Assembly (NCBI GenBank): GCA_048213135.1
Contig: PS015064.1
Coordinates: 1-64,000 of the forward strand
DNA: 64,000 nt
Direction: 5' to 3'
Source of the DNA: Reclinomonas americana ATCC 50394
Lineage: Eukaryota
A program made the position numbers and the translations under genes. How positions within the stretch are numbered: the first letter of the stretch is position 1; every line of letters begins with the position of its first letter. Positions 1,287 through 58,917 of this stretch are shown here, piece after piece. Below the pieces are notes generated by a model that did no database searches, was not told where the DNA came from, and worked only from the letters and a program-made list of their open reading frames with translations.

Positions 1287-1534
1287 GGTGTGGTCACGAG
1301 AGGCCGCCGCGTCAGAGACAGAGAGGAGCGAGGGAGAGAGAAGGACGACTCTTCAACGCGTTCGAGCTCAAACGTTCGTTGTGCTGATGTGCTGGGTGTC
1401 ACCGTGGCACATCATCTCTGCATCGCTCTCCTCCACAAAAGAGGAAAGGCGCGCATCCTCGCAAAGCCGCGTACGTAGTGTGTGATAGAGGAGGTTTCCT
1501 GTCCCCGGCGGACACCATCCCGATTTCACCATCC

Positions 1535-4540: not shown

Positions 4541-34945
<30,405 letters not shown>

Positions 34946-35450: not shown

Positions 35451-36312
35451 AGAGAAAGGGAAAGGGGAGGGAGGGAAGGGGGACGATGGAAGGAGTGAAG
35501 GGGGAATGGAAATGTTTCGTCGCACCTTGGTGTCTGTATTCTTCTGCTTACTGTTACTCAAGTTGTGTCTGCGTAAGTGTGCTGAGGCTCCCAAGTCGAC
35601 TGCCAGCCTCGGTTCGGCCGACGGTTTGACTCTCAACACGCTGGCGACTGTGCGGCTTCTTGGTCGCTTCGCATGTTTGTGTGCCAGCGTAAGGAGCAGG
35701 ATGAGCGGAGAGGCGAGTGAGAGAGAAAGAATGCGAGGAGGATGGGCGTGTAAAGCAAGCTGGTTCAAACAACGGGGTACATACATTGCGAGCTCAATGG
35801 AGGAAGGACAGGGAGGGAAAGAGGGAATGGGGAGGGATTCACACCACGGATGCGATTGCACAAGGCACACAGACAAACACGCACGGGAGATGAAGAGGGA
35901 AGAGAGAGCGAGAGAAGAGAAGAGAGACAATGTGAAACGGATGAGGATGTTGATCAATCATGTTACACATGCGGTGCACTCACACGAATCAATAACACGC
36001 ACGCATGCACGCGTGAGACGATCCTTACTCGGAAAAGGGAGAAGAGAGAAAGAGAGAGAAAAGAGCGCGAGACTGTGACGCATGGGCGCGAAATTCAATC
36101 ACAACGAGAATGCGGCACAGACAGGCAAATCAACGAGACGAGCACGCACACATGCCCACGTGCAACAATGTTCACTCGGAGGGAAAAGAAGAGAAGAGAG
36201 AGAAGGGGGGTGGAGAGAAGGAATCATTTCTGCGATCCGTGCACACACTGCAAGAAGAATTCACTCTCTCTCTCTATCTTCTCTCTCTCTCTCTCTCGCT
36301 CACTCGCCCTCC

Positions 36313-36345
<33 letters not shown>

Positions 36346-36648
36346 GCACACACCTTTCATGCAACAACGAATCGAACACGAGTCCTTTTCGCCCCCTGCG
36401 TTCCTCTTTCACTCACACCCCGCACTCTCTTCCTCGCTCATTCACGACACGTGGCACAGCAGGTGACCATCAAACACTGGCGTGCTGCAGAACGAAAGAA
36501 AGATACGTCGGATGTCCTGCATGACATTGATCTCACGCATAGCACAACGCAAAACGCCACGAGGATAAGCCAACTGTGTGTGAGACGTGTGTGCAACAAG
36601 GTGCATCGTGCGGAAGAGCGAGAAAAAACAAAGAACTGCGACGAGAAG

Positions 36649-39600
36649 ATGTCGGTGAGTTGCATTGATGGAGTGGGGGACGCTTGTTGTTCGCATGCTT
36701 CTCCCTCTCCTCTCATCGCTTGTCACTTGCTGCCTTGTGTGTGTCGCAGTTCTCTGTTCACGTGAGCGCGGCGCATGATTCATCGCTGTCGGTGGTGGTG
36801 GCGGGCATGTCGGTCATGTCCACTCTCGAGGACTTGCTGCGTGAGGCCACCCGCTTGATGCGTGAGAAGAGTGGGGATGGAGTGATGGAGATTGCGGGGG
36901 TGGAGAAACCAGCGCCGTACAACATTGTCGGCCTCGCCGCTGTTAAGATTGGAGATCTCGGCATCAACTCATCCACTCATCTCGTCATCCGTCTGAACCT
37001 TCGCGTGGCGCCACAGGCGAGTGGAGGACGCGGGAGTGGAAGCGAGAGGTGCGTTGCTGGATGTGTTTTAGAATCATATCTTTTGTGTCATACAGCTCGC
37101 TTATGTTCTAGATCTTCTTCACACAGCAACTCGGAGCGAGTGACTCGGTTTGTTTTGCTTCTCTTCGGCACCTTTCTCTCTCGCCTTCTTGTTCTTCTCT
37201 CGATGCGAGTGTGTGCTGACTATGTCTGTGTGCGCACGCAGCATGATCAACTCCCAGCGCATCAACATGGCCTTTGAGGTGATGGAGGAGGCCGTGCGTC
37301 TGCGCTGTCAACGCGCACTGGCGCAGTTCAGTCGCGATCATGCCGACTTTGATGTGCGTGCGTGGGTGCCGAGTTTCACGCCTACTGGTATGGATACGGT
37401 GGCAGTGAAGGCATGGCGTGAGCGACATGCTCCACTTCATACAGTGCGAGTTGCGCTTTTCAAGGAGAAACAGCCGGTGGTATTGGCCTGGCGTGCTGCA
37501 TTCGACGCCGACTCCTCGTCCGACCCTCCGTGTGATGGTTTCGACACGACGGCACTCGCCTCAATTGTGCTGTACTGTGGCTTCATTCAGGATGACGGTC
37601 ACAAGCTTATGCTGATTGACAATGTTGATGAACGGAAGGCAGTCGAGGAGCTGCACGGTGTCAGGAACAAGCTGAGACACGACGAGTTGCCATTGACGGG
37701 TGCCACTGTGCAGCAGTACCTTGGTGACGGTGGTGTCTTTCTCTCCATCCTCTCTCGACTACAGTTGACGGCTGAAGCGAGAGCTGAATACTCTGCTCGT
37801 ATCTGTGAGGCACGCCACGCTCGACTCATCGTGGACACATTCGAGGAGCGACTGCATCGACTGGCTGTGCGTGAGCTCTCATTCTACCAACACGACGAGA
37901 GTATACGCAAGGACACGCAGATGTATGTGCCACTGCTGTGCTCACGCGAACGTGAAGTCTCATCGAGTGACAAGATGACAGATTTGTTGACGGAGGTGGA
38001 TGCTTTCCTCTCTGACGCCAACACCACCCAGCGTGTGTTGGTGCTGTTCGGCAACAGCGGCGCCGGCAAGACTACCACCATGTCAATACTCGCTGAGCGA
38101 GCATGGCAACAGTGGCAGATGAGAGAGAGCAGACGAGTACCTGTGCGTGTGCCTCTTGGTGCTCTGCGCAATGCTGATGAGAGACTGTTGGAGGAGGCAT
38201 TGGAGCGACTGTCACCCGAGTTGGGATTGGATTCGGATGTGCGACGGTTGAAGGAGGAACCACTGTTGTTGTTGCTTGACGGGTACGACGAGTTGTACCG
38301 TGGTGTGAATCTGTTTGTCAAGAACCAGCTGGATGTGTGTCGTGATGTGAAGGTGATTATCACTTGTCGTGGCGATTACGCTCTGACGGTTCTGGGTGGA
38401 GTGACGCAGTATCAACGGTACTTTGCACCGGTGGATGCACGTGGACAGTTGTGCATGCAGCAGCTGATGGAGAGACACATTGCGCCGTTCAACAAGGAGC
38501 AGATTGAGAAGTACTTTAGGCGACTGGTGCAAGTGGGTGGTGATGACGGTGAAGTGCGATGGTCGACTACAGAAGACTACATTGGCGCACTGAAGAGTGT
38601 ACATGGACTGGATGCACTGGTGTCGAATCCATTCCTACTGGCAGTGGTGGCTCGTGTGTTGCCGGAGTTGGTGGCGAGTGGCGTGCAACGACCGACTCGA
38701 CGCGATGTGTTCGATCGATTCATTCGACAGTGGATTGTGAGGGAGCAGGAGAGGCAGACGCGTCTTGGTGCGGAGCGTGTGCCGAGTGAAGAGACGTGTC
38801 TCTCGTTCTGTGAGGGACTGGCACGGTTGATGCACGAGAGGAACGTGGTGCGTGTGTCTGTGATAGAGAACCGACCAAGTGAGGTTGATTTTGGTGGTGC
38901 GCCACTCGCCTTGCGACGAGTGGAAGAAGGACCGTTTGACAGGTTCCTCGGTCACAGGAACCAGCATGTGCGAGTGTGCTGTCCGATTGTGCGACGGTAT
39001 GGGACGACGCAGTGGGGATTCGTGCATCTGTCTTTGTTGGAGCATTGTGTGGCACGGCATGTATTTGCATGGGAGACGTGGGGCGAGGAGGGGAAATTGA
39101 CGGTGCAAGATGTGCAGCAGCATGTGTTGGGAGTGCGACTGCTGAATGATCGACCATCGTTGGTGGAGCAGATTGCCGAGGTGGTGCGACGGTCTCCTCG
39201 ATTGCAAGCGAGGCTGTGGGAAGTGATTGTGATGTCGAGGGAGGTGGATGAGGAGCAAGTGGTGACGGCCGCAGCGAATGCAGCGACGGTGCTGTGTGTG
39301 GCACAAGTATCGTTCAGCGGACGGGATCTGTCGGGTGTGCGAGTAAGGGGTGCTGATTTGAGGGATGCGGTGATGCACAGAACGGTGTGGAGCGGAGCGG
39401 ATCTAAGAAGGGTGAACGTGTGCATGGCGTTTGCGAGAGAGGCGGATTTCAGGGGAGCGGATGTCACGGGAGTGAGGTGGCCGAGGAAACCAATTGAAGG
39501 CCACACAGATTGGGTGTATGCAGTGGCAGTGACACCCAACGGCCAGCACATTGTGAGTGGCGGTAAGGACGAGACTGTACGGGTGTGGTCAGTGGCAACT

Positions 39601-41409
39601 GGCGAGGAGGTGCGCCGACTGGAAGGGCACGCAGGTAGGGTACTTGCAGTGACAGTGACACCAGATGGCCACCACGTCGTGAGTGGCAGTGGTGATCGGA
39701 CTGTGCGGGTATGGTCACTTGCAAGTCACGAGGAGGTGCGCCGACTGGAAGGCCACACAGAGTCGGTGAATGCTGTGGCAGTGACACCCGATGGCCATCA
39801 CATTGTGAGTGGCAGTGATGACAAGACTATACGAGTGTGGTCTGTGGCAAGTGGCGAGGAGGTGCGCCGACTGGAAGGTCACACGGATAGGGTGAATGCA
39901 GTGGCAGTGACACCCGATGGCCAGCACGTTGTAAGTAGCAGTGATGACAATACTGTACGGGTGTGGTCGGTGGCAAGTGGCGAGGAGGTGCGCCGATTGG
40001 AAGGCCACACAGATAGGGTGAATGCAGTGGCAGTGACACCCGATGGGCAGCACATTATGAGTGGCAGTGATGACAAGACTGTACGAGTGTGGTCTGTGAC
40101 AAGTGGCGAGGAGGTGCGCCGACTGGAAGGCCACACTGATCATGTTCGGGCAGTGGCCGTCGCACCCGATGGCCAGCACATCGTGAGTAGCAGTGATGAC
40201 AGGACTATACGAATGTGGTCGCTGACAAGTGGCGAGGAGGTGCGCCGACTGGAGGGCCACACGGATACAGTGTTTGCAGTGGCAGTGACACCTGATTGCC
40301 AGCTCATTGTGAGTGGCGGTGAGGACAAGACTGTGCGAGTGTGGTCGGTGGCAAGTGGCGAGGAAGTGCGCCAACTGGCAGGTCACACGATGTCGGTGTC
40401 TGCAGTTGCAGTGACACCTGACGGTCACCATATTGTGAGTGGCAGTGAGGACAAGACTGTACGGGTAAGGTCGGTGACAAGTGGTGAGGAGGTGCGTCGA
40501 CTTTTTGGCCACTGGGGGGAGGTGTATGCAGTGGCAGTGACACCCGATGGCCAGCTCGTTGTGAGTGGCAGTTGGGACGGAACTGTGCGAGTGTGGTCGG
40601 TGGCCAGTGGCAACGAGGTTCGCCAACTGGAAGGCCACACTCGTGAGGTGAACGCAGTGGCAGTGACACCCGATGGCCAGCTCGTTGTGAGTGGCAGTGG
40701 GGACGGAACTGTACGAGTGTGGTCGGTGGCAAATGGCGAGGAGGTGCGCAGACTGGAAGGCCACATTGGTTTGGTGCTTGCAGTGGCAGTGACACGCGAT
40801 GGCCAGCACATTGTGAGTGGCAGTGATGACAAGACTGTACGGGTGTGGTCGGTGACAGGTGGCGAGGAGGTGCGCCGACTGGAAGGCCACACGAGTTTGG
40901 TGTGGGCAGTGGCAGTGACCCCCGATGGGCAGCACGTTGTGAGTGGCAGTTGGGACTGGACTGTACGGGTGTGGTCAGTGGCAAGTGGCGAGGAGGTGCG
41001 CCGACTTCAAGGCCACGCGAGTTGGGTGCATGCAGTGGCAGTGACACCCGATGGCCAGCACGTTGTGAGTGGCAGTGCAGACAATACTGTGCGGGTGTGG
41101 TCGGTGGCAAGTGGCGAGGAGGTGTGCCGACTGGAAGGCCATACGAGTACGGTACTTGCAGTGGCAGTGTCACCCAATGGCCAGTACATTGTGAGCGGCA
41201 GTCGTGACAAGACTGTACGGGTGTGGTCGGTGTCGAGTGGCGTGGAGGTGCGCCGCCTGGAAGGCCGCACGGACGGGGTGTGTACAGAGGTAGATGGACA
41301 GCGTGTTCTTCCAAGTTGGAAGGACACACCACTTGCACACCACATTGGAGAGCTACTCCTGCGCATTCTCGGCTCCTTCCTGCCTGATTTCACCGGCGTG
41401 ATTTTGTGA
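36649..41409 (+). CDS. NLR-like STAND protein: ubiquitin-like - HEPN - NACHT - pentapeptide repeat - 14x WD40
   Basis: Exons 36649-36654 (MS), 36750-37048, 37112-37147 and 37242-41409 join in frame. UBL-like MSFSVHV...STLEDLL...KIGDLGINSSTHLVIRLNLR; HEPN-like FDTTAL and RNKLRH (37663-37680); Walker A GNSGAGKT (38050-38073); Walker B LLLLLDGYDE (38263-38292); VIITCR sensor; NPFLL; AAANAATVL plus pentapeptides (~39270-39475); 14 GH...VW repeats of 42 aa (~39495-41230). Confidence 0.9.
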
Positions 41410-42859
41410 CAAGACAAACGGGAGCTCGTGTAGCAACCCTTACATGTCTGCCGACTTACGGATTATGCAGGCACGCGTGGACCCCTAGCCTGTCGTGCAT
41501 GCAATATGCGCCAAGCCGAACTAGGTGCTCGGCGTTAACAATGTGCAAAATGACCTCAGCGATCGGACGAATCACAGTATTGGTTGTTTGTCGTCGCCGC
41601 TGGCTGCATCTATTTCTGATGCAGATGATCTTTGGTCCAGCTGCACCCCGGTCAAGGGTTTCGTGTGGTATTCTTCATGGCGAAGAGATGCCCTCAGTAA
41701 CCTGAGATATTCGTCGAGAGTACGCTTGTCGAGTTCCTGAAGTACATGTACTCCGTTGTTGGCTGGTGAGGGATGTATATTCGATGCAAGAGATGTCGCT
41801 GTACTCTAACGAGTTCACCTGCGCAGCGGATAGCGAAGATCACATACTCCGCCCGCAGCATCTCCATACAGCACCTGTCCACCACTCGGCGCACCTACTT
41901 GTTCTCCATGCCCATCTTCTTGAGCGACGTCCGGTGTGCACATGGGAAAAGGGAAGGGAGGGGGGGAAGGAAGGGATAAGTGGAGAAGGAGGAGATGGGA
42001 GGGGAGGAAAAGGGAATGGAGACGGGAGGAGAAGAGAAGGAGGAGACGGGAGGAGACGGGAGGAGAAGAGAGAAGAAGAGAAGGAGGAGAAGTGAAGAGA
42101 GGAGACGGGAGGGGAAGGGAGGAAAAGAGAGAAGAAGAGAAGGAGGAGAAGGGAAGAGAGGGGAAGGGAAGGGAGGAGAGGAGAAGGGAAGAGAGGAGAA
42201 GGGAAGGGAGGAGAGGAGAAGGGAAGAGAGGAGAAGGGAAGAGAAGAGGAAGAGAGGACAAGGAGGAGACGGGAGGAGAAGAGAGAAGAAGAAGGGAAGA
42301 AAGGAGGAGAGAAGGAGGAGAAGTGATAGAGGATTGGAGGAGAATGTTTGAGAGGGGGGATGAGAGGAAAGATGAGAGGAGATAAAGGAATGTAAGAGAA
42401 AGGAGAGGGAAAGAACGGAGAGAAGAGAGGAAGTGAGAGGTGAGAAGGAGAGAATAGAAACTGGGACCAATCAGAATGTGCGGTTGTTTCCGTGTGCGAG
42501 AGCTTGTGCAGTGTGACTGTGTGTGTATATGTGAGTTTGTGAGCGAGGACGGGAGAGTGAGACCTGCTCAGCTGGCAGGGATGAAAAGGATGTGAAGGGA
42601 GGAGGAATGGGGAAGCAGCAGTGAACAGAATGAGTGAGTTGTGAGATGCGTTATGTGGTCAGAGAGACACTGTGGATGAAAACATGTACGTTGAGCGAGA
42701 TGCATGAGATTACGTTGAATAGAGCCCCGTATTGCAGAGGACAGCTGATGGACTTTGTAGACTGGAGACATTTATGTCGACTGAATGAGCATTTCTGGAC
42801 GTCGGTAGTGGTTTCTTTGCGTCAAAAGCATGTTTTCCTTTCTCTAACTCTCTGCGAAA

Positions 42860-45800: not shown

Positions 45801-48547
45801 AGAGAGGTAAAGAGGGAAGGGGAGGGAGGGAAGTGAGTCGAGGAGAAGGGGGGTTTTGATGGCATTTTGCATGGAAGAGACAGAGGGTGGAAGTGTGTTG
45901 ATGAGGAAGCAAGGGAGAGAGAAGCAGACTGAAGAATGTCTGTTGAGTTTGTGTGCATTACAAGAGAGGGAAAGGCAGGAGGGAGAAAGGGAACAGATTA
46001 GCTTTGGAAGTGTGTGGATGGGAACGCGTTGGGGAGAGTAACAATGAGAAGTGTGTCTGTGGAGTGTTTGTGGCGCAAGAGAGGACCGTCAGGGGATGAA
46101 TAGGTTGTGGTATTGTGTAGATGGGGATGCAAACGATTAAAGGAGAACGAGGGCAAGGAGACGGAGTGGTTGTGGCAATGAGTGTGTTGATGGGGATGTG
46201 AAGGATAGAGAAACAGAGAGAAGAGTGTCGGTGGAGATTGGATGGCAAGAGAGGATCGTCAGAGGGGGGAGGGAAAGGATTGGTTGTGTTCGACAGTGTG
46301 TGGNNNNNNNNNNNNNNNNNNNNNNNNNNNNNNNNNNNNNNNNNNNNNNNNNNNNNNNNNNNNNNNNNNNNNNNNNNNNNNNNNNNNNNNNNNNNNNNNN
46401 NNNNNNNNNNNNNNNNNNNNNNNNNNNNNNNNNNNNNNNNNNNNNNNNNNNNNNNNNNNNNNNNNNNNNNNNNNNNNNNNNNNNNNNNNNNNNNNNNNNN
46501 GGTTGAGGGTGTGCACATGGGAATGCATTGGAGAGAGAAACAAAAGAGGAGAATGTCTGCGGAGGCTGTTTGTGTGTGTGTGTGTGGCAAGGGAGGATCA
46601 TCAGACGTGGGAAGGGAAATGATACCTTGTGGCAGTGTGGATGATAATGCATTGTAGAGATAGTAAGAATGAGAAGTGTGCCGTGGAGGTAGTGCGTGTG
46701 GTAAGAGAGGATCGTCAGAGGTGGGAAGGGAATTGATACTTTGTGGCAGTGTGGATGAGAATGCATTGGAGAGATAGTAACAAAGAAAAGTGTGCCGTGG
46801 ATACAGTGTGTGTGGCAAGTCAGAGGGGGGAAAGGGATAGCATACGTTGTGGTAGTGTGTGGATTGGATGTTATCGAGAGGGTTACAAAGCGAGCATTGT
46901 TAATGGAGGTTGATTCTGTATGCGAGAGAAAGGTTGGAGGGAGAAGAGAGGAAGGACAATTTGTCAATATTTGTGGTATTGTGTGACGACGGTAAGAGGG
47001 AGAGAGTACTAGTGAGATAGGCGGAGCGCATCAGTGGAGATAGTTATTGTCCTGCGAGAGTGAGAGACCGACTGGGGAGAGGAAAGGATTAGTTGTTCCC
47101 CTGTGTGATGTGAATGCACCGCATGGGGGGACGGGTTGTGGGTGACAGGAGTGGAAGACTTGAGGAGGGGAATGGCTGAGACTTTTGGGAGTGTGTGCTT
47201 GGGAATTCAACAGATGAGTGGCATAGAGGATTGAAAGTCAACTGTGCGTGCGAGGAGAGGAGGTGGGGGACAGAAAGGAAATGTTGAGGTGTTGTTGATG
47301 AGAGAAACAGCTACATGTGAGTGAGTCAGAGAGTTTATGCGTGAAACAGAGAGGAGTGACAGAGGAGCGGGTTGGATATCATGACATTCTAAATCGCATG
47401 GTGTCCACGGCTTGCATGCTGACGTTTGCTTCCTGGTTGTGCGACAGATGAGCACTGGCACTGGCACTCGCTCCGTGGAGATCACGCACCGCTTTGTGCA
47501 ATCGTTCCCGGCGATTCCCACTGTGCTCTTTGGCATCTCCGCTCTCTCCAATACGATTGAGGGCGACACTGACATTCGCTGCGCGCGGCCGTCGGTCACC
47601 GAGTTTATGCTGACGGTGCAGTGCTCGGCACTCGGCACTGCGCAGTTCGACTCGCTCGTTACCAGTTTCGTGAGAGAGGTTTAGTTCTCATGCACACTTG
47701 CATGGAACTCACGACCTGCGTGGCAGATTTCATCGCCATGTACGCGGACCCTGCCGCGACGTACACACACGACAACGAGTTGCCGCGTCAGAAAGCCGCC
47801 AATGAGTGGCTGAGCCTGGCCACCGACAAGAATTTCACTACGGTATGTTGATTCAAGCAGACCTGTGTATGGTCCTTGGACTCATTCATCGCGACCACGC
47901 GGCTGTGTGAGCAGGAAGTGGTGAATGCCCATGCTTTCGGATTCCAGACAATCCCCTCGATTGCGCTGGCGCTGACGGGTGTGCGGTCCATTCGACTCGA
48001 TTCGAGTGGCACGGCGCGCAGCGACAACTTTGAGGTGGCCGTCGGTGAGGCAGCCGCTGCCACCTCGCAGGTGCTGATGACGGTGCGCGGCGATAGTCGC
48101 GTGCAGGCGCTGGAGCTGCGTTCCATGCTGGTGGGATCGCGGCTGGTGCCGCGTGACAATTCCAGTGGCTACGTGATGGTTTCGGGCGGTGAGTTTGACC
48201 GCGAAGATTTGCCGGCAGTTGTGCACGATTGCTGACATGGATCACCGACATGTTGCACAGAGAGCACGCTGGTGGGAAACGCGCCGGTGGTAGTCACCCT
48301 CATCAGCCGTCAGTCAACCCGCGGGTTGAAACAGACTGATTTCCACACCGCCGCATTCTTGCGTGGATGGAAGACGACCGGCACTGGTGCATCGCAGGTC
48401 AGTCCGTCGATTCTACCGACAGATGTGGTTCCGTCGCAAGGCAGCGCGTCGAGTGGAGCGTACGGGCAGCTGACGGTGACGGCGAGCAGTGGGGGAGGTG
48501 TGGAGGAGACGTATGTGACGTGGGTGGCGATTGGCATCCCGGCGTGA
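42860..48547 (+). CDS. Multi-exon extracellular-type protein ending in three H-type-lectin-like domains; 5' end not found, possibly pseudogenised
   Basis: Spliceable exons at ~42860-42965, 43041-43116, 43184-43405, 43456-43518, 43556-43870, 44684-44889, 45310-45557, 47448-47664, 47727-47842, ~47915-48188 and 48261-48547. The C-terminal units show an H-lectin-like pattern (FVQSFPAIPTVLFGISALS; FGFQTIPSIALALTGVRS; TYVTWVAIG*). The model needs a GA donor at 43406 and a frameshift near 43705. Confidence 0.55.
44130..44545 (+). repeat. ~105-bp tandem minisatellite (about 4 degenerate copies) within an intron
   Basis: The block AGCCAC(A/G)TATGTGCGAGAGAT...GGATGTGAATGAGAG...GGTTGCGAGAGGCAA recurs at ~44257, 44362 and 44468. 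Confidence 0.8.
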
Positions 48548-48803
48548 GAGAGGAGAAGGGAGGGGTTTGTGGAAGGGAAGTAGGTAGTGAATACGCAGGA
48601 AAGGAAAGAAAACAGAGAGCGTATGGGGCAAGTGGGGGTGGAGGGAAGGGAGGGCGCAAGGGGGAAGGGAGGGAGGGAGGGAAGGGAGGGCAAGGGGGAA
48701 GGGAGGGGGAAGGGAGGGGGAAGGGAGGCGGAAGGGAGGGGAGAAGGGAGGGGGAAGAGCAAGGGGAAAGAGCAAGGGGAAGGGAGGGGAAAGAGAGAGA
48801 GAA

Positions 48804-48840
<37 letters not shown>

Positions 48841-49186
48841 TAGAGAGAGAGGGAGGGAGAGAGAGAAAGAGAGACGGAGCGANNNNNNNNNNNNNNNNNN
48901 NNGGCATGCATGCACGCACCCTCAATTCCGCAACATCTCACTCACATCGCAGTTGGAGAATGGAGCTCCACGACGGGGACGCGGAGAGACAGGGGGCACT
49001 GAGACACAGACGGCACCACGAGGCGCACGCACACGCGCGCGAGGATGTTGATGTTCCGTCGGATGAATCAGAGTGCTTCACACACACACACACACACACA
49101 CACGTGCACACACACACCACACACACACACCCTCTCTCTCTCTCTCACACACACACACACTCTCTCACACACACACACCACGGAGA

Positions 49187-50351
49187 ATGACAGCAAAGGT
49201 GTGAATTCGTGTGCACTTTTGCGTGGTTGGTGTCTGTGCGTGCATTCGTGTGCTCGTGCACGTGCGTGTGTGCAGTTATTGTTTGTGTGTCTTCGAATGT
49301 CGCTGCTGTGTGTGCGTCTCACCGCGAATGATCGGCACAGATCATTCAGAGTCTCGCAGAAGTGGGATCCGTCACCATCACTCCCGACGGCAAGCACATT
49401 GTTGGTGGGTGCATGGACAGTACCGTTCGTGTGTGGTCTTTGGCAAGTGGAGAAGAAGTGCGACGGCTGGATGGACACACCGACATGGTGATGTCTGTCG
49501 CCGTCACTCCTGATGGCCAGCACATCGTGAGTGGAGGTTTAGACAACACAGTACGGGTGTGGTCGCTGGAGAGTGGGATGGAGGTGCGACGGCTGGTGGG
49601 ACACACTGGATGGGTGTATTGTGTCGCCATCACTCCTGAGGGTCATCACATCGTGAGTGGGGGCTGGGACTGCATAGTGCGGGTGTGGTCGCTGGCGAGT
49701 GGCAAGGAGGTGCGACGGATGGAAGGACACACCGACACGGTGTGGTCTGTCACAGTCACTCCCGATGGTCAGCATGTGGTGAGTGGGGGTGAAGACAGCA
49801 CCGTACGAGTGTGGTTGCTGGCGAGCGGCGAAGAAGTGCGGCGGTTGGAAGGACACACTGACTGGGTATACTCTGTCACCGTCACCCCTGATGGTCAGCA
49901 CGTTGTTAGTGGAAGTGCGGATCGCACCGTGCGGGTGTGGTCACTGACGAGTGGAGAAGAAGTGCGACGGTTGGAGGGACACACTGGAAGGGTGTATTGT
50001 GTCACCGTCACTCCCGATGGCCAGCACATCGTTCACAGGAGCGAAGACGGCACAATTTGGGTGTGGTCTCTGGTGAGTGGCGAGGAAGTGCGACGGTTGG
50101 ATGAACACACTGGATGGGTATCGTCTGTGGCCGTCTCTCCCAATGGTCTCCACATTGTGAGTGCGGGTGGCGACGACAAGACCGTGCGAGTGTGGTGCAC
50201 GCCGCGTGGCCTTGCTCGTCTCGAACTCGACGCTGCGCGGTCGGCCATGCAGGCTGTGCAAGAGGAGGAAGAAGATTCACGATGCCTTCCCGAGCTGGTT
50301 CTGCGCTGTTTCATCGTCGAGGATGCCGAGGTCGTCCTTTTCCGGTGCTGA
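49187..50351 (+). CDS. Stand-alone WD40 propeller protein, copy 1 (7 blades)
   Basis: Micro-exon 49187-49198 (MTAK), GT-AG intron with CTCAC branch, exon 2 49341-50351 (IIQSLAEVGSVTITPDG...LPELVLRCFIVEDAEVVLFRC*). Confidence 0.85.
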
Positions 50352-52275
50352 GTGGGTGAGTCGAAGGGAGGGAAGGTGGCTGCTGGTGATCGTGAGTTGT
50401 TTTTTCGTGTCTTGCGCGGGAGTGCGGGTGATCATGCAGGGTGCAGGTGGGGAGAGAGGACGACTGACGAGAGGAGAGAAGTCGACGTGGATGATGCAGA
50501 ATTGTTCTCCCGTGCTTGTTCCCCTTTCATGTGAGTGAGAGAGAGGTAGTGAAGCACGTCTCCCTCTGTGTGCGTGCCTCTTTCTCACCTCCATTTGTGT
50601 ATGCGAGCGAGATGAATCAATTGGAGTCTGTGATTTCTTTTCCCCCTCGTTGTGATGTCTGTTGTGTGTGCATCTTCAGCTGTGCATGTATGTGCCTCAG
50701 GAGAGCGAGTCACCGATGTTTGTTTCCCTCGCGTCTTGTTTTCGCACCACTTTGGCATCACTGCTCTGCTTCCCATCGTACCTGTGCGCCGCGGACATTC
50801 TCCCTACGTTCTGAAGAATGCCTGTCTTGCAGCTCTCTTTTTTCCTGCCTCCTGCAGAGTCTATCTTTTTCTCCGCCATCTCCCTGCCTTTGTGCGCTCA
50901 TCTGCTTCCCCAGTCATCCACCCCTCCTTGCCGCACACGCTCGAGGCCGAACATGCTGGTCCGCTCACCGTGTTACGATTTCCATCCTGCCAGTCCATCA
51001 TGGTGAGCATCCCGACACCGAAGTGTGTGAGGTGGCATACCTCTCTCCCTTGCAGGATGGTTGTGTGAGCGTCCCTTGGCTTGCTTCTTGACAAACGCGT
51101 GTTGGTATCAGGTGCTGATCGGTGTGTTTGTCAGTGAGACAGAGCAGATTTCTCTCCCCGTCCTCCATTCTTTGCTCACAGCACACCGGCATGCAGAGAC
51201 CATGGAAAGCATGTCGTGGCGATGACAGGCGTGATGTGCATTGCCCGTTGTCGACCGTCACCTCACTCACTCGGCTCCCCACTCGCATCCCACGATGCAC
51301 TCAGCAGTTGTGTGGCCCTGTTTTTCGTGATCTCTCTCCTCCTTCCCTCCACTCACCTCAATTATGCAGGCTGCGCATGCTATGGAGAGCGTGGATTAGT
51401 GGGTGTACACATGTGTGTCGTGATGTGTGATGGTGGCCTGGTCGGTGGATCGTTTTCAATCCCGGTTGGCAAGTCAGAGCGGAACGATTATGTGCGCTCC
51501 TTGGTTGCTGCTCACACTGCCAAGTGACAATGGTTGTGGCCACGGGAGACTGCAGACACGTGCGAGGCCAGCAAGACATGGTGAGTGCGTGTTCTGCATC
51601 TGCGTTGAGGAGCAAGTCGGTGAGACTTGGAGATTGACTGTATCAATTCTGTGTGTGTGATCTGAACACAGCGTGCTGGTAAGTGACTGGCATGCGAAGA
51701 CACGTGGTTCCGTGCTTCACAGTGCATGCGCGAGACGATTCACCGACCGACTGTGAGTGTGATTGAAGGCATGAGGCATTGATTGTGAGTTGGGAAAGAG
51801 GAGGCGAGCCTCGCTACACTGCTGCCTGTTCCATCGTTGTGCTGCTGTTATGGTCGCTCCTCTCCTGTCTCATGTGGCTCTTTTTCTTCATTGTCTCACC
51901 TCAACGTCGCTGTGGGCCGATCCGAGGAGGTGTGAGGTGTCGCTGACTCGCTGCTCATTGGATTCTCAGCTATGCTGTGCTGTGGCTTCAGCACAGCTGG
52001 ACCACAGCTGCATATCCAAGCAGCCCGACATTCCAATTCTCGTTGGCAGAGAATACTGGCCGGTCTCGATGCAATGGAGCGCCAACCTCGTGTCACCACC
52101 ACCACCTTGCATGGTCCATTTTCTGCCGATTTCGCATAGATGTCGACGAGTCCCATGTCGGTCTTCAAAAGCCCACACGCATCAACGAAGCCACACTGCT
52201 CTCACACTGCTGCATGCATATGCTGTGTGGGGTGCTGGCTGCAGCCTGGCGAGGATGCGGGACGTCTCGGAGCAA

Positions 52276-52340
52276 GGCGGGAGAAGAAAGGCGGGAAACA
52301 GTGACAATCCGGAGCGAGCAAATCACACACACACAAACAC
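52276..52340 (+). promoter_or_regulatory. Putative proximal promoter of the WD40 genes (GGCGGGA x2, including E2F-like GCGGGAAA, then (CA)n)
   Basis: GCGGGAAA at 52291, 55167, 58855 and 62297, about 50-70 nt upstream of each ATG; absent before copy 1. The conservation may simply reflect duplication. Confidence 0.25.
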
Positions 52341-52355
52341 ACGCACGCACGGAGA

Positions 52356-53248
52356 ATGACAACAAAGGTGTGAATGTCTGCGCACTTTGCGTGGTTTGTG
52401 TCTGTGCGTGCATTCGTTTGTGTGCGGGTGTTGTTCTTTGTGTTTGTGCGTGTGCGTCTCACCGCGAATGATCTTCACAGATCATTCAGAATATCGCTTC
52501 AGTGCGATCCGTCACCAGTACTCCCGATGGCAATCACATTGTTGGTGGGTGCATGGACAGCACCGTTCGAATGTGGTCACTGGCGAGTGGCGAAGAAGTG
52601 CGACGGCTGGAGGGACACACTGGATGGGTGTTTTCTGTCGCCGTCACCCCAAATGGCCAGCAGATAGTGAGTGGGGATGGAGACAACACAGTGCGGGTGT
52701 GGTCGCTGGCGAGTGGCAAGGAGGTGCGACGGATGGAAGGACACGCTGACTGGGTGTGGTCAGTCACTGTCACCCCTGATTGTCAGCATAAAGTGAGTGG
52801 GAGCAGGGACTGCACCGTGCGGGTATGGTCGCTGATGAGTGGAGACCAAGTGTGGCGATTGGAAGGACGCACTGGTGCGGTGTGGTCTGTCGCTGTCACT
52901 CCCGACGGCCAACAAGTCGTGAGCGGGAGCGGGGATGGCTCCATTCGGGTGTTGTCTCTGGCGAGTGGCGAGGAAGTGCGGCGGTTGGATGGTCACACTG
53001 GATGGGTGTCGTCTGTGGCCGTCTCTCCCGACGGTCAGCACATTGTGAGTGCGGGTGGCGACGACAAGACGGTGCGAGTGTGGTCGACGCCGCGTGGTCT
53101 TGCTCGCCTTGAACTCGACGCCGCGCGCTTGGCCATGCATGCCGTGCAGGAAATGCAGGAGGAAGAAGTAGATTCACGATGCCTTCCCGAGCTGGTTCTG
53201 CGCTGCTTCATCGCCGAGGATGCCGAGGTCGTCTTTTTCCGGTGCTGA
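52356..53248 (+). CDS. Stand-alone WD40 protein, copy 2 (5 blades)
   Basis: Micro-exon 52356-52367 (MTTK), exon 2 52481-53248, same C-terminal tail as copy 1. Confidence 0.8.
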
Positions 53249-55219
53249 GTCGGTGAGTTGGAGAGAGGGAAGGTGGTTCCTGGTGATTGTGAGTTGTTGT
53301 CGTGTCTGCGAGGGAGAATGGGTGATCACGCGGGATGCAGGTGGGGAAGAGAGGATGACAGAGGAGAGAGATCGCGATCGAGAGATCGCTGCTGATGGTG
53401 GTGAATTCTTCTCCCGTGTTTGTTGCCCTGTCATGTGAATGCGAGTGAGTGGGCGTGGAGCATGTCTCCCTCTGTGTACGTGTCTCTTTCTCACCTCAGT
53501 TTGTGTGTGCCAGTGCGATGAATCACCTGGGAGTCTCTTGCGTTTTTTGTCTCGTTGTGAAGTCGACGTCTGTTGTGTATGCATCTTTCGTCGTGCGTGT
53601 ACGTGCCTCAGGACGGCGAGTCGCCATTGTCTGTTTCCTCGCGTCTCGTTTTGCACACATCTACTCTGTGCCCCATTGTGCATGTGCGCCGTGCACATTC
53701 TCCTTCCGACTCTGAAGAATGCGTGTCATTCCGTTCCCCCTTTTTTCTGTCCTTTGTTGATTCTCTCTTTCTCCACCATCTCTCTCCTTGTGCGCTCATC
53801 TGCTTCCCCAGTCATCCACCCCTCCTTCCCGCACACGCTCGAGGCCGAGCTGCTGGTCCGCTCACCGTGTTCCGACTGCCATCCTGCCAGTCCATCATGG
53901 CGAGCTTCCCGATGCCGAAGTGTGTGAGGTGGCATGACTGCATACTGACTCTGCTCCTTCTCTCTCTCTCTCTCGTAGGATGGATGTGTGTACAGAAGCA
54001 TCCCTTGGCTTGCCTCTTGACCAAACGCGTGTTGGTATCAGGTGCTGATCGGTGTGTTCGGCATCGAGACAGAGCAGCAGATTTCTCTCTCCTTCCTCCA
54101 TTCCTTTTGCTCACAGCACACCAATATGCAGACACCTTGGAAGCACGTGCTCCTCGGTGGCCGTGACGATGACAGACGTGCCGTGCATCGCCCGCTGCCG
54201 GCTATCACCTCACTCACTCGGCTCCCCACTCGCATCCCTCCCTGCACGAAGCAGGTGCATGACCTTGTTCGTCTTGATCTCTCTTTTCTCCTTTCCTCCC
54301 ACTCACTTCATTCTTGCAGGCCGTACATGCCATGGAGAGCGTGGTGAGGTCGTGCTGTGTGCCGGTGGCCTGGTCGGTGGATCGTTTCAATCCCGGCTGG
54401 CAAGTCGGAGCGAATCGATGATGTGCGCTCCTTGGTTGCTGCTGTCACTGCGCGCCGAGTGATGATGTTGGTGGCCACGGAAGACTGCAGACACGTGCAA
54501 GGCCAGCAACACATGGTGCGTGCGTGTTCTGCATCTGCGTTGAGGAGTAAGTTGGTGAGACTTGGAGATTGACTGACTCAGTTCGGTGTGTGCCATGAAC
54601 ACAGGCGTGCTGGCAAGTGACTGGCATGCGAAGACACGTGGTTCTGTGCCTCACAGTGCATGCGCGAGACGATTCACCGGCCGACTGCGAGTGTGATTGA
54701 AGGCACGAGGCATTGGCTGTGACTTGGGTGAGAGGGAGGCGAGTCTCACAACACAGTTGCCTCGTCCATCGGTGTGCTGCTGTGCTGGTCTCTCCTCTCC
54801 CGTCCGTTGTGCCATCATCGTGCCCTCGTCAACCTCGCTGTGGGTCGATCCGAGGTGTGAGGTGCAGGGCCACAGCTGCGTATCCAAGCAGCCCGACATG
54901 CCAGTCCTCGTTGAGAGATAATGCAGGGCAGTAGAAAGAGAGTGTCGCTGGACAGCAGCGCGATGCAATGGAGCGCCACCTCGAGCCACCACCACCATGT
55001 CCATTCTGCCGACTACGCGTCGATGGCGACGAGTCCCATGTCGGTCTTCAAAAGCCCACACGCATGAACAAAGCGACATCGCTCACACTACTGCATGCTG
55101 TATGGGGTGCTGGCTGCAGCCTGTCGAGGGATGCGGGACGTCTCAGAGCAAGGCGGGACAAGAAAGGCGGGAAACGGTGACAATCCCGAGCGAGCAAATC
55201 ACACACACACACACGGAGA

Positions 55220-56894
55220 ATGGCAACAAAGGTGTGAATGTATGCGCACTTTTGCGTGGTTGGTGTCTGTGCGTGCATTTGTGTGCTCGTGCATGTGTGC
55301 GGTTGCTGTTTGTGTGCTTGTGCATGTGTGTCTCACCGAGTGATCGACGCAGATCATTCAGAGTCTCGCTTCTTCGGTGCGATCCGTCACTGTCACTACC
55401 GATTGCCAGCACAGTGTCGGTGGATGTGAGGACCGCACCATCCGAGTNNNNNNNNNNNNNNNNNNNNNNNNNNNNNNNNNNNNNNNNNNNNNNNNNNNNN
55501 NNNNNNNNNNNNNNNNNNNNNNNNNNNNNNNNNNNNNNNNNNNNNNNNNNNNNNNNNNNNNNNNNNNNNNNNNNNNNNNNNNNNNNNNNNNNNNNNNNNN
55601 NNNNNNNNNNNNNNNNNNNNNNNNNNNNNNNNNNNNNNNNNNNNNNNNNNNNNNNNNNNNNNNNNNNNNNNNNNNNNNNNNNNNNNNNNNNNNNNNNNNN
55701 NNNNNNNNNNNNNNNNNNNNNNNNNNNNNNNNNNNNNNNNNNNNNNNNNNNNNNNNNNNNNNNNNNNNNNNNNNNNNNNNNNNNNNNNNNNNNNNNNNNN
55801 NNNNNNNNGTGGTCTCTGGCGAGTGGCAAAGAGGTGCGACGGCTGGTGGGACACACTGATGCGGTGTGGTCTGTCGCTGTCACCCCTGATAATCAGCACA
55901 TCGTGAGTGGAGGTGGAGACAACACCCTACGTGTGTGGTTGCTGGAGAGTGGAGAAGAGGTGCGACGGTTGGCGGGCCACACCGACATGGTGATGTCTGT
56001 CACCTTCACCCCTGATGGTCAGCACGTCGCGAGTGGTAGCTGCGATAACACAATTCGGGTGTGGTCACTTGCAAGTGGGCAAGAGACGCGACGATTGAAG
56101 GTGCACACTAATTGGGTACTCTCTGTAGCCGTCACCCCCGACGGTCGGCACGTAGTGAGCGGGGGTGGGGACAACACCGTGCGGGTGTGGTTGCTGGCGA
56201 GNNNNNNNNNNNNNNNNNNNNNNNNNNNNNNNNNNNNNNNNNNNNNNNNNNNNNNNNNNNNNNNNNNNNNNNNNNNNNNNNNNNNNNNNNNNNNNNNNNN
56301 NNNNNNNNNNNNNNNNNNNNNNNNNNNNNNNNNNNNNNNNNNNNNNNNNNNNNNNNNNNCGGGGAAGAGGTGCGACGATTGGAGGGACACACTGACTGGG
56401 TGATGTCAGTCGCTGTTACTCCAGATGGTCAACACGTCGTGAGTGGCAGTAGGGACAACACAGTGCGGGTGTGGTCACTGGCAGGTGGAGAGCTAATGCG
56501 ACAGTTGGAGGGACACGCCAGTACGGTGACGTCTGTCGCCGTCACCTCTGATGGTCAGCACATCGTGAGCGGGAGCGGAGACAGCACAATTCGGATGTGG
56601 TCTCTGACAAGTGGCGAGGAAGTGCGACGGATAGAGGGGCACACTGGATGGGTGTCGTGTGTGGCCGTCTCTCCCAATGGTCAGCACATTGTGAGTGCGG
56701 GTGGCATTGACGGGACGATACGAGTGTGGTCCACACCGCGTGGCCTTGCTCGCCTCGAACTCGACGCTGCGCGCTCGGCCATGCATGCTGTGCAGGAGAT
56801 GCAGGAGGAAGAAGTAGATTCACGATGCCTTCCCGAGCTGGTTCTGCGCTGCTTCATCGTCGAGGATGCCGAGGTCATCCTTTTCCGGTGCTGA
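55220..56894 (+). CDS. Stand-alone WD40 protein, copy 3 (at least 7 blades, two gaps)
   Basis: Micro-exon 55220-55231 (MATK), exon 2 from 55353, interrupted by N runs; same tail ending at 56894. Confidence 0.75.
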
Positions 56895-58917
56895 GTTGGT
56901 GAGTCGAAGGGAAGGTGGCTGCTGGTGACTGGGAGTTGTTTTTCGTGTCTTCTGAGGGAGAGTGGGTGATTGTGCGGGATGCAGATTGAAGAAGAGAGGA
57001 CGACAGACGAGAGGAGAGAAGTCGACGTGGATGATGCAGAATTGTTCTCTGTGCTTGTTGCCCTATCATGTGAGTGAGAGAGAGGTAGTGAAGCACGTCT
57101 CCCTCTGTGTGCGTGCCTCTTTCTCACCTCCGTTTGTGTATGCGAGCGAGATGAATCAATTGGAGTCTGTGATTTCTTTTCCCCTCGTTGTGATGTCTGT
57201 TGTGCGTGCATCTTTCGTCGCTGATATGCGTGCCTCATGAGAGCGAGTCACCGTTGTCTGTTTCCCTCGCGTCTTGTTTTTCGCACCTCCTTGGCACCGC
57301 CATACTCTGCTTCCCATTGTGCCTGTGAGCCGCGGACATTCTCCGTCCGTCTCTGCAGGATGCCTGTCTTTCAGCTCTCTTTTTCCTGCCTCCTGCAGAG
57401 TCTATCTCTTTCTCCGCCATCTCCCTGCCTTTGTGCGCTTATCTGCTTCCCCAGTAATCCGCCCCTCCTTGCCGCACTCGCTCAAGGCCGAGCATTCTGG
57501 TCTGCTCAAGATGCACCGACTGCCGTCCTGCCAGTCTATCATGGTGAGCTTCCCGATGCCGAAGTGTGTGAGATTGCCTGACTGCATACTGATTCTTCTC
57601 TCCCTCTCCTTTGCAGGATGGATGTGTGTGTACAGAAGCAACCTTTGGCTTGCCTCTTGACCAACCACTTGTTGGCATCAGGTGCTGATCGATGTGTTCG
57701 TCACGTGAAACCGAGCAGATGTCTCTCCTCTCCTCCATTCCTTTGCTCACTGCGCACCGACATGCAGAGGCCATGGAAGCACGTGTTCCTCGTCGTTGTT
57801 GTTCCGTAATGATTGCAGGCGTGCTGTACATCGCCCGCTGCCGGCTGTCACCTCACTCACTCGGCTCCCCATTCGCATCCCATCATGCACGAAGCAGGTG
57901 TGTGGCCTTGTTCGTCTTGATCGCTCTTTCTTCCTTCCCTCCCACTCACCTCATTCATGCAGGCCATGCATGTCATGGAGAGCGTGGCGTGGGTGGGTGT
58001 ACACATGCGTGTCGTGGTGTGCCATGGTGGCGTGGTCGGTGTATCGTTTTTGTATCCCGGCTGGCATGTCGGAGCGGATCGACGATGTGCACGCCTTGAT
58101 TGTCGCTCTCTGTGTCGAGCGACAAAGGTGGTGGCCATGGGAGACTGCAGACACGTGCGAGTCCAGCAACACATGGTGCGTGCATTTTCTGCATCTGAGT
58201 TGAGGAGCAAGTTGGTGAGACTCGCAGAAATTCTGTGTGTGATCTGAACACAGGCGTGCTGGCAAGTGACTGGCATACGAAGACACGTGGCTCCGTGCAT
58301 CACAGTACATGAGTGAGATGGTTCACCGACCGACTGTGAGTGCGATTGTATGCACGAGACAATGATTGTGACTGGGTGAGAGGGAGGCGAGTCTCACGAC
58401 AGCGCTGCCTCGTCCATCGCTGTGCTGCTGTGCTGGTCGCTGCTCTCCTGTCTCTTGTGGCTCTTTTCTTCATTGTCTCACGTCAACCTCGCTGTGGGCC
58501 GATCCAAGGAGGTGTGAGGTTTCGAAGACTCGGTGCTCCATGGATTGGCATCAGCACACCAGGGGCACAGCTGCACATGCATGCAGCACGGCATGCCAGT
58601 CCTCGTTGACAGAGAATGCAGGTCAGTAGAAAGAGAGTGTTGCTGGACAGCAGCGCGATGCAGTGGAGCGCCACCTTGTGTCGCCAGCATGTCCGTTCTG
58701 CCGATTTCTCATCGACGAGTCCCATGTCGGTCTTCGAAAGCCCACAAGCATCGACAAAGCCACATTGCTCTCATACTGCTGTATGTTATGTGGCGTACTG
58801 GCTGTAGCCTCGCGAGGGATGGACGACGTCTCAGAGCAAGGCGGGAGAAGAAAGGCGGGAAACGGTGACAATCCCGAGCGAGCAAATCACACACACACAC
58901 ACACACGCTCACGGAGA

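Follow-up and report, generated by a model that had tools for sequence, protein, structure and literature searches.

HEPN domains on STAND proteins are documented, in the cited sections of three sources, both in animals and in bacteria (PMC3710099, PMC8662601, bioRxiv 10.1101/2022.07.19.500537), as the original prediction for the locus described here had stated. The same sections describe animal HEPN-NLRs in which HEPN domains of the DZIP3/hRUL138 type and of CXorf38 (Swt1 clan) are fused to NACHT (Anantharaman et al. 2013, PMC3710099; TIAMMAt, PMC8662601), whereas in bacteria, bNACHT and other STAND antiphage proteins can carry HEPN effectors, according to the parts of the reports cited (Kibby et al., bioRxiv 10.1101/2022.07.19.500537; Kaur et al. 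2021, PMC8195603). As defined in the cited part of the survey of the superfamily, the HEPN motif is Rx4-6H in which the arginine is immediately followed by a polar residue (N, D or H), and in the HEPN fold, it is described at the end of helix 3 (PMC3710099). This fold is an up-down bundle of four helices, and helix 2, upstream of the motif, holds a second conserved residue, which is acidic. The KEN domains of RNase L and Ire1, for which mutagenesis shows that the arginine and the histidine are needed, are placed in the same superfamily, and sacsin is listed as a protein that has both a ubiquitin-like domain and an HEPN domain (PMC3710099, Table 1).

As judged from its sequence, the locus analyzed here is one spliced eukaryotic gene on the forward strand that encodes an NLR-like STAND protein of ~1490 residues under a predicted three-exon model; both this model, with splicing predicted from sequence signals, and the NACHT-WD40 architecture are sound. 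All coordinates refer to the window, i.e. the whole stretch of 64 000 nucleotides analyzed, for which an Rfam search gave no match. On direct reading, the predicted exon 1 (36649..36654) consists of two codons, a putative start ATG (36649-36651) and TCG, followed by the donor GTGAGT from position 36655; unspliced, the ATG at 36649 reaches a stop at 36765 (ORF 36079-36765). The predicted intron 1 (36655..36749; 95 nt, GTGAGT...TGTGTGTCGCAG) ends at 36749 with an acceptor of the (TG)n-rich plus CAG style, which is shared with acceptors in five further genes of the window. The predicted exon 2 (36750..37048) contributes 99 full codons plus 2 bases (P0001) and would be an orphan N-terminal extension, and the predicted intron 2 (37049..37241; 193 nt, GTGCGT...GCGCACGCAG) has its donor GTGCGT, preceded by GAG, at 37049 and its acceptor ending at 37241. 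Both predicted introns follow the GT-AG consensus. Exon 3 (37242..41409) runs through the stop codon and comprises 1388 codons counted from 37243 (P0003), where an ATG, directly after the acceptor, is the first full codon; the frame is preserved across the exon 2/exon 3 junction by the codon AGC, split as AG and C. That the long ORF (37144-41409) omits a predicted upstream exon, as originally proposed, is borne out: exon 2 is missing from it because this exon is in a different frame.

The body of the predicted protein includes a NACHT NTPase domain (38032..38526; PF05729, 38.2 bits with a cut-off of 26.7, E = 1.7e-9; Walker A GNSGAGKT), an array of WD40 repeats and, between the two, pentapeptide repeats (39307..39408; PF00805, 28.5 bits with a cut-off of 20.2). 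The array (39496..41272) consists of 14 tandem repeats, each exactly 126 nt (42 amino acids) long, followed by a degenerate 15th unit; Tandem Repeats Finder reports a period of 126, 14.1 copies and 81% matches, and the Pfam WD40 model matches 14 stretches (E = 2.4e-169). With NACHT above the Pfam cut-off and 14 WD40 repeats, the assignment to NACHT-WD40 proteins stands. The repeats show 74% mean pairwise identity, with the variation concentrated at repeat positions 5-7, 9, 25 and 27. Their number is enough for two seven-bladed propellers, and variation at so few positions is in keeping with a surface that binds a ligand. WD40 repeat hypervariability is a feature of HET-E/HET-D/NWD-type proteins, and by likeness to these, a role in self/non-self sensing is plausible. 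The NACHT region has 721 relatives at E<=0.001, and the best 120 of these 721 are mostly NACHT-pentapeptide-WD40 proteins of Mortierellomycotina along with proteins of their endosymbionts Mycoavidus and Glomeribacter, at 26-32% identity across 87-100% of the region and E-values down to 1.2e-72. By its NACHT ATPase and WD40 sensor architecture, the protein would function as an NLR-type immune-style switch.

The ‘head' of the protein is a different matter. Ahead of the NACHT module lie about 215 residues, or about 317 when exon 2 is included, which form a separate N-terminal domain. The exon 3 portion (37243..37887; P0002 residues 1-215) is an orphan, mostly helical domain and a candidate HEPN RNase effector, with a sub-threshold match to HEPN_Swt1. 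The first 256 residues of exon 3 have no relatives at E<=0.001 among 1,835,955,588 representative proteins; none turned up among 1947 long-protein candidates or in a scan of metagenome contigs either, and a tblastn search within the window found no paralog of exon 2, of the exon 3 head or of NACHT. The head is unrelated to the N-termini of the best 120 of the 721 NACHT relatives, which fits a swappable effector position.

The case for HEPN starts from the hexapeptide RNKLRH (37663..37680; P0002 residues 141-146), an Rx4H motif that has the canonical Rx4-6H spacing and the polar residue (N) directly after the arginine. The intact R-N-x3-H that was originally reported is thus present, but the HEPN domain read from it is at best a candidate, with all HEPN profile scores below threshold. 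Motifs of the generic Rx4-6H form appear in 18600 of 20000 shuffles of P0002, and therefore only the strict RNxxxH form, which is found in 264 of 20000 shuffles (1.3%), is informative. A second, chance-type match, RHAPLH, is located at P0002 residues 61-66, so that such motifs evidently arise with ease. HEPN_Swt1 is the sole Pfam family that matches the exon 3 head at E<=10, and it does so in four overlapping cuts, at 13-13.8 bits (cut-off 27.5; E 0.075-0.14) over 32 residues (129-160). The best language-model look-alike of the head in the Atlas is likewise an HEPN_Swt1 cluster (score 0.81), and the ten best family-bearing Atlas matches all fall within one family or clan; both observations are leads only. 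A profile built from 12 bacterial HEPN_Swt1 domains aligns P0002 residues 128-147, placing RNKLRH on the RNxxAH block, with a score that is reached by 30 of 3000 full shuffles and by 64 of 3000 (2.1%) of those that preserve the motif, whereas hhalign of P0002 with the 12 bacterial members yields 18 columns at a probability of 1.4%.

The signal is narrow. In a block-wise shuffle test, the score of the motif block is reached by only 4 of 2000 shuffles, compared with 593, 689 and 1140 of 2000 for the three other HEPN_Swt1 blocks. FDTTAL, which had been advanced as support for HEPN, is indeed present (P0002 residues 100-105; 37540-37557), and in the MAFFT alignment, the aspartate of GFDTTAL (D101), the candidate for the second, acidic residue, coincides with a conserved D in one of the bacterial blocks, but this block is the one matched by 689 of 2000 shuffles, that is, no better than shuffles. 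A colinear four-block similarity to HEPN_Swt1, which had been suggested by the MAFFT alignment, was ruled out by the same block-wise test. The HEPN signal is confined to RNKLRH and about 20-30 surrounding residues; the Pfam match, the custom profile and probably the Atlas match are not independent because all lean on this motif. Single-sequence AlphaFold runs, the only kind feasible given that no alignment could be built, produced models too poor to use; that of the exon 3 head (pLDDT 39.4) is helical, with helix 130-145 ending in the motif, and Foldseek with this low-confidence model retrieved nothing at E<=0.001. Searches with PADLOC and NCBIfam gave no relevant match to the HEPN candidate, and a PDB sequence search with P0002 gave none.

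The main alternative is that the head is not HEPN but a helical effector or adaptor peculiar to its lineage, for instance a membrane-targeting or signaling bundle of helices such as fungal and other NLRs commonly carry, that RNKLRH is there by chance, and that the NLR-like switch does not have RNA cleavage as its output. Under-cut-off scores for every HEPN family, similarity to HEPN_Swt1 that is absent outside the motif block, a head devoid of relatives in the 1.84 billion representatives and the long-protein candidates, and five RNxxxH motifs in the 68288 residues of the six-frame ORFs of the window are all compatible with this possibility, as is the great diversity of NLR N-termini, which are often unannotated according to the cited sections of PMC9815663 and PMC8662601. 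Against it stand the rarity of the strict motif in shuffles of P0002, the additional score contributed by the motif flanks in the motif-preserving test and the coincidence of the sole Pfam family with the best Atlas cluster. Such a non-HEPN head is a serious, if not a probable, alternative. The HEPN reading of the exon 3 head, plausible although below every accepted threshold, is finely poised, tilting slightly toward being correct; its reading as an RNase is weakly supported.

Taken as a whole, the picture of a spliced NLR-like STAND gene with a divergent HEPN RNase head switched by oligomerization is about evenly balanced between right and wrong. In this picture, the ~215-residue helical domain before NACHT would be a very divergent HEPN-type metal-independent RNase, with RNKLRH as the Rx4H active-site motif of the candidate enzyme. 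Binding of a ligand to the WD40 propellers would cause the NACHT module to oligomerize and, in doing so, to draw the N-terminal domains into proximity; the HEPN domains, once paired, would then cleave RNA, with arrest of growth, cell death or restriction of a virus as the outcome. Activation by oligomerization is proposed by analogy with the known biology of STAND and HEPN proteins.

The 99 codons of exon 2 are probably a real coding extension at the N-terminus of the NACHT protein, as suggested by codon usage and by the consensus splice sites. The codon log-odds of this exon amount to +0.175 bits/codon in the proposed frame, the one that splices in frame, and are negative in the five other frames; this bias exceeds that of the domain that follows (+0.10) and places exon 2 among the highest-scoring 8.6% of 407 stretches of 99 codons that are free of stops. 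In the frame of exon 2, the score is -0.31 within intron 1 and turns positive from 36750, i.e. the coding signal sets in at the proposed acceptor and precedes any in-frame ATG within exon 2; within intron 2, codon scores are negative in 3/3 frames. All this, together with the good donor and acceptor sequences, the latter resembling others in the window, is at odds with the possibility that exon 2 is outside the protein, translation starting at the ATG at 37243 or at an ATG slightly upstream in the same frame, with 36649-37241 serving as 5' leader, holding an upstream ORF or giving rise to a small transcript of its own. There are, nevertheless, several observations in favor of this possibility. 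Because the first full codon of exon 3 is itself an ATG, a shorter product lacking exon 2 might be made. Long open frames are cheap in this window because it contains 96 ORFs of at least 180 amino acids, and the in-frame exon 2-exon 3 join is unremarkable in itself because, by a hand count of those listed, 76 GT-AG pairs keep the frame open, the originally chosen pair being the one with the best splice consensus among them. Furthermore, exon 2 lacks a domain match, a search for its relatives among longer proteins found none at E<=10, and its coding signal wanes across the last third, dropping to near zero in the final 39 codons. On balance, exclusion of exon 2 from the protein appears unlikely.

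What exon 2 encodes is a separate question. The original prediction held that it matches the ubiquitin pattern, and this claim failed every profile test. Among the Pfam families matched by P0001 at E<=10, there is none of the ubiquitin clan; the top match is the unrelated Methyltransf_8 (E 0.009-0.013, under its cut-off). A ubiquitin profile made from 8 bacterial PF00240 domains scores exon 2 at -0.6 bits, a value that 560 of 3000 shuffles reach, with two weak local matches (model positions 12-16 and 58-69) that are colinear with the fold. The 20-residue ubiquitin string invoked originally scores 31 against P0001 (local match SSTHLVIRL), which is reached by just 0.28% of 5000 shuffles and is the best among 575 ORFs of the window, but the runner-up scores 29, and once the search space is counted, the match is not clearly above chance. 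The Atlas look-alikes of P0001 score 0.76-0.80, and 4 of the 6 matches listed are ubiquitin-type clusters (0.76-0.78; a lead only), but one third of shuffled proteins attain 0.76-0.78. The single-sequence AlphaFold model of exon 2 (pLDDT 40.4; one helix and two short strands) is unusable, Foldseek with this low-confidence model gave no match at E<=0.001, and PDB sequence search with P0001 produced matches at chance level only. On the present evidence, a ubiquitin-like identity of exon 2 is not accepted and appears doubtful. The entire original reading, in which exon 2 would be a ubiquitin-like beta-grasp domain that precedes an active HEPN RNase and controls turnover, targeting or assembly, can draw on the Atlas clusters, the colinear local matches and the rarity of the SSTHLVIRL match among shuffles, as well as on precedents in the cited parts of two papers, ubiquitin-clan domains at the N-termini of fungal NLRs (PMC9815663) and sacsin (PMC3710099), but given the profile, shuffle and model results above, it is quite improbable.

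HEPN heads on NACHT and STAND proteins are already in print; if the HEPN reading is right, the present gene would be a very divergent addition to these, and the surprise for the specialist is moderate because the concept of HEPN on STAND has been published. In the main texts of the literature searched, no report was found of a ubiquitin-like-plus-HEPN effector module on any NLR. The boldest formulation, an NLR from an unsampled eukaryotic lineage in which the founding member of an HEPN RNase family for which no relatives can be detected, with a cryptic ubiquitin-like domain on an exon of its own in front, is mounted on a NACHT-pentapeptide-WD40 body of the fungal/endosymbiont type, is a long shot. 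Should the head be an active HEPN RNase, HEPN-NLRs, that is, immune-type switches with RNA cutting as the output, would be known from a further eukaryotic lineage in addition to animals and bacteria, and the head, too divergent for detection by standard annotation, could usefully seed the search for others. For now, the locus is a well-formed NLR-like gene with a candidate output domain.

Several known systems, as described in the cited portions of the sources, can be compared with the present protein. Sacsin would be an earlier example of a polypeptide with both a ubiquitin-like and an HEPN domain, but it is otherwise unrelated in architecture, and for exon 2, the ubiquitin-like reading lacks support. 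RNase L and Ire1 are mechanistic analogues in which sensor-driven self-association turns on an HEPN-type RNase, but their sensor and switch modules are of the ankyrin/kinase kind, with a circular permutation in the KEN fold, and sequence comparison gave no match here. The fungal HET-E/HET-D/NWD proteins share with the present one NACHT and highly similar tandem WD40 repeats that vary at few positions (Kibby et al., bioRxiv 10.1101/2022.07.19.500537), but carry HET or other heads rather than HEPN. The proteins of Mortierellomycotina, Mycoavidus and Glomeribacter have the same NACHT-pentapeptide-WD40 body (PMC9815663), whereas their N-terminal domains, in the best 120 of the 721 NACHT relatives, bear no similarity to the head described here, and the low level of identity places the present genome outside this group. 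The animal HEPN-NLRs, which are for the most part confined to animals but are noted to have expanded in Capsaspora as well, resemble the present protein in the predicted N-terminal HEPN RNase on a NACHT protein, in the Rx4H motif with a polar residue after the arginine and in a presumed role in immunity or cell death. They differ in being recognizable by Pfam-type profiles, whereas the candidate here is below threshold for every family and has no relative among 1.84 billion representative proteins; unlike in these animal proteins, the sensor consists of pentapeptide and WD40 repeats, and NACHT is closest to the fungal/endosymbiont group (best 120 of 721). From the bacterial bNACHT and other STAND antiphage proteins, the present gene differs in being eukaryotic and predicted to contain introns, but it would have the same three-part layout: an N-terminal enzymatic effector, with HEPN among those listed, then a NACHT/STAND switch and, at the C-terminus, a sensor made of repeats.

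The forward strand of the window carries a real, well-formed NLR-like gene with a predicted spliced product of about 1490 residues. The ATG, splice signals and exon layout of the original prediction are borne out on re-reading of the sequence: the proposed exon 1 is the ATG at 36649 followed by TCG; intron 1 (95 nt) has the consensus donor GTGAGT and the acceptor ...TGTGTGTCGCAG ending at 36749; exon 2 (36750–37048; translation denoted P0001) is open for 99 codons; intron 2 (193 nt) has the donor GAG/GTGCGT and the acceptor ...GCGCACGCAG; and exon 3 starts at 37242 and encodes the 1388-codon protein P0003, with the stop at 41407–41409. The junction codon of exons 2 and 3 is AG/C and the frame is kept; the unspliced reading from the first ATG (36649) ends at a stop at 36765. 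Long ORFs arise readily in this window, which is rich in GC and in repeats (96 ORFs of at least 180 amino acids), and 76 GT–AG pairs, counted from the printed rows, would join exons 2 and 3 in frame, so an in-frame splice alone is weak evidence.

Stronger support than an in-frame splice comes from a codon log-odds model, for which the NACHT-WD40 body and four further ORFs confirmed by Pfam served as training set, through the score of exon 2, its rank and the onset of the signal. In the proposed frame the score of exon 2 is +0.175 bits per codon, against negative values in the other five; the N-terminal domain that follows it scores +0.10, and every frame of the two introns gives a negative value. 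Exon 2 ranks in the top 8.6% of the 407 stop-free 99-codon segments outside the training set, and those that outrank it are mostly evident exons of other genes. The coding signal begins at 36750, ahead of any in-frame ATG in exon 2, reaches +0.39 over codons 1–19 and is close to zero across the final 39 codons. Both acceptors combine a (TG)n-rich tract with CAG, a combination also seen at the acceptors of five further genes in the window. The three-exon gene model is, on this evidence, probably correct.

The body of the protein is matched in Pfam by NACHT (38.2 bits, cut-off 26.7), pentapeptide repeats (28.5 bits, cut-off 20.2) and WD40 in 14 stretches. The WD40 array is built of a unit of exactly 126 nt repeated 14 times, with nucleotide matches of 81% and a mean pairwise protein identity of 74%, the variation falling mostly at repeat positions 5–7, 9, 25 and 27; beyond it, at 41260–41409 (+), come a 15th unit in degenerate form (LEGRTDGV...) and then 40 unrelated residues up to the stop. 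A search with the NACHT region gave 721 relatives at E ≤ 0.001. Of the 120 listed, with 26–32% identity, most are Mortierellomycotina proteins of the NACHT-pentapeptide-WD40 type and some come from Mycoavidus and Glomeribacter, endosymbionts of these fungi. These proteins have a body like that of the present gene but differ in their N-termini, which, among the 120, show no similarity to this head beyond a weak match in the pre-NACHT linker. Judged by its sequence, the body is therefore typical of an already known NLR-like group, but the head it carries is different.

Five WD40-only gene copies form a tandem array at 49332–63557 (+), with starts 2.9–3.7 kb apart (about 49332–50351, 52472–53248, 55344–56894, interrupted by N gaps, 59058–60107 and 62489–63557, all +). 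Each has a near-identical (TG)n-rich acceptor region upstream of its start, no NACHT precedes any of them within the window, and they have in common the non-WD40 tail ...PRGLARLELDAARSAM.AVQE...CLPELVLRCFI.EDAEV..F.C. The copies, whose WD40 consensus is almost identical to that of the NACHT gene, may represent stand-alone propeller genes, with repeats shared or exchanged between them and the NLR. An open frame of 654 codons at 1388–3352 (+) contains ankyrin repeats (Ank_2, E 6.3e-22), and the window also has 3017 N bases in assembly gaps, several within the WD40 tandem genes (e.g. around 55430–55800). The genes are flanked by long low-complexity tracts of (GA)n/(CT)n and related type (34000–34600, 36180–36350, 41850–42500 and 48400–48900), and these produce numerous long but spurious ORFs on either strand. 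Rfam found no family at the gathering score in the whole window.

The candidate HEPN domain of the head, P0002, which comprises residues 1–256 encoded by exon 3, is an orphan: there were no matches at E ≤ 0.001 among 1,835,955,588 representative proteins and no relatives among 1947 long-protein candidates, in a metagenome contig scan or, as paralogs, in the window. The HEPN active-site motif has been defined as Rx4-6H, located where helix 3 ends and with N, D or H following the R (PMC3710099), and the string RNKLRH (residues 141–146) falls within this definition. As evidence the generic pattern is worthless, being present in 18600 of 20000 shuffles; the strict form RNxxxH turns up in 264 of 20000 (1.3%) and five times in the six-frame ORFs of the window. 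The same arginine-rich domain has another string of the R[H]x3H type, RHAPLH (residues 61–66; 37423–37440, +), which illustrates the ease with which loose HEPN-type motifs come about by chance.

HEPN_Swt1 is the sole Pfam family at E ≤ 10 for P0002, whole and in three sub-cuts, although with 13–13.8 bits (residues 129–160, E 0.075–0.14) it stays below the cut-off of 27.5, and the top language-model look-alike, a lead only, is a cluster with 99% HEPN_Swt1 members (score 0.81). A profile of 12 aligned bacterial HEPN_Swt1 domains, from the 12 of 401 genomes with a match and narrower than that of Pfam because a single phylum was sampled, aligns residues 128–147 at 3.6 bits. This score is reached by 30 of 3000 full shuffles and by 64 of 3000 that keep RNKLRH in place, so the motif flanks add a little; hhalign recovers the same 18 columns with 1.4% probability. 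MAFFT suggested four colinear blocks, with GFDTTAL on the conserved D-containing block of the family, but block-by-block shuffling supports the motif block alone (4 of 2000), the other three being at chance (593, 689 and 1140 of 2000). The single-sequence AlphaFold model (pLDDT 39.4) is too low to use, and Foldseek on it gave noise. The HEPN reading agrees with the domain position and known architectures but draws on a single short block, with lines of support that depend on each other. As a single hypothesis for the head, a very divergent HEPN RNase is the best one, at even to slightly better than even chances.

That exon 2 has a ubiquitin-like fold, the other half of the proposed module, is unproven and rather unlikely. 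The C-terminal ubiquitin string does match P0001 locally (SSTHLVIRL, score 31, reached by 0.28% of shuffles), but the best unrelated ORF of the window scores 29, no ubiquitin-clan family appears in Pfam at E ≤ 10, and a profile of eight bacterial PF00240 domains (match in 5 of 401 genomes) gives -0.6 bits, reached by 560 of 3000 shuffles. A strand-helix pattern seen by eye counts in favour, as do the ubiquitin-type clusters among the Atlas look-alikes (four of the six shown), which score 0.76–0.78, a range reached by a third of shuffled proteins. Foldseek with the low-confidence AlphaFold model (pLDDT 40.4) found nothing, and there were no relatives among longer proteins. The top Pfam match, ranking above any ubiquitin-type family, is a 67-residue fragment of the unrelated Methyltransf_8 (36750–37010, +; E 0.009–0.013, 16 bits, cut-off 27), probably spurious.

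The gene has the three-part NLR layout. By established STAND and HEPN biology, the WD40 propellers would bind a ligand at the variable repeat positions, the NACHT module would oligomerise and bring the heads together, and a HEPN pair would cut RNA. Published cases include, in animals, HEPN fused to NACHT in DZIP3-type and CXorf38-type families (a DZIP3-type expansion being noted outside this group, in Capsaspora, as well; PMC3710099), and N-terminal HEPN on the NLRs of nine invertebrate taxa (PMC8662601). In bacteria, the effector domains of NACHT proteins (bioRxiv 10.1101/2022.07.19.500537) and of other STAND systems (PMC8195603) include HEPN, and in fungi the N-termini of NLRs can carry ubiquitin-clan (Crinkler) domains (PMC9815663). 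The supplementary alignments and architecture tables of these papers may hold closer cases. If the HEPN reading is true, the gene is a further case of an already known kind, HEPN on NACHT.
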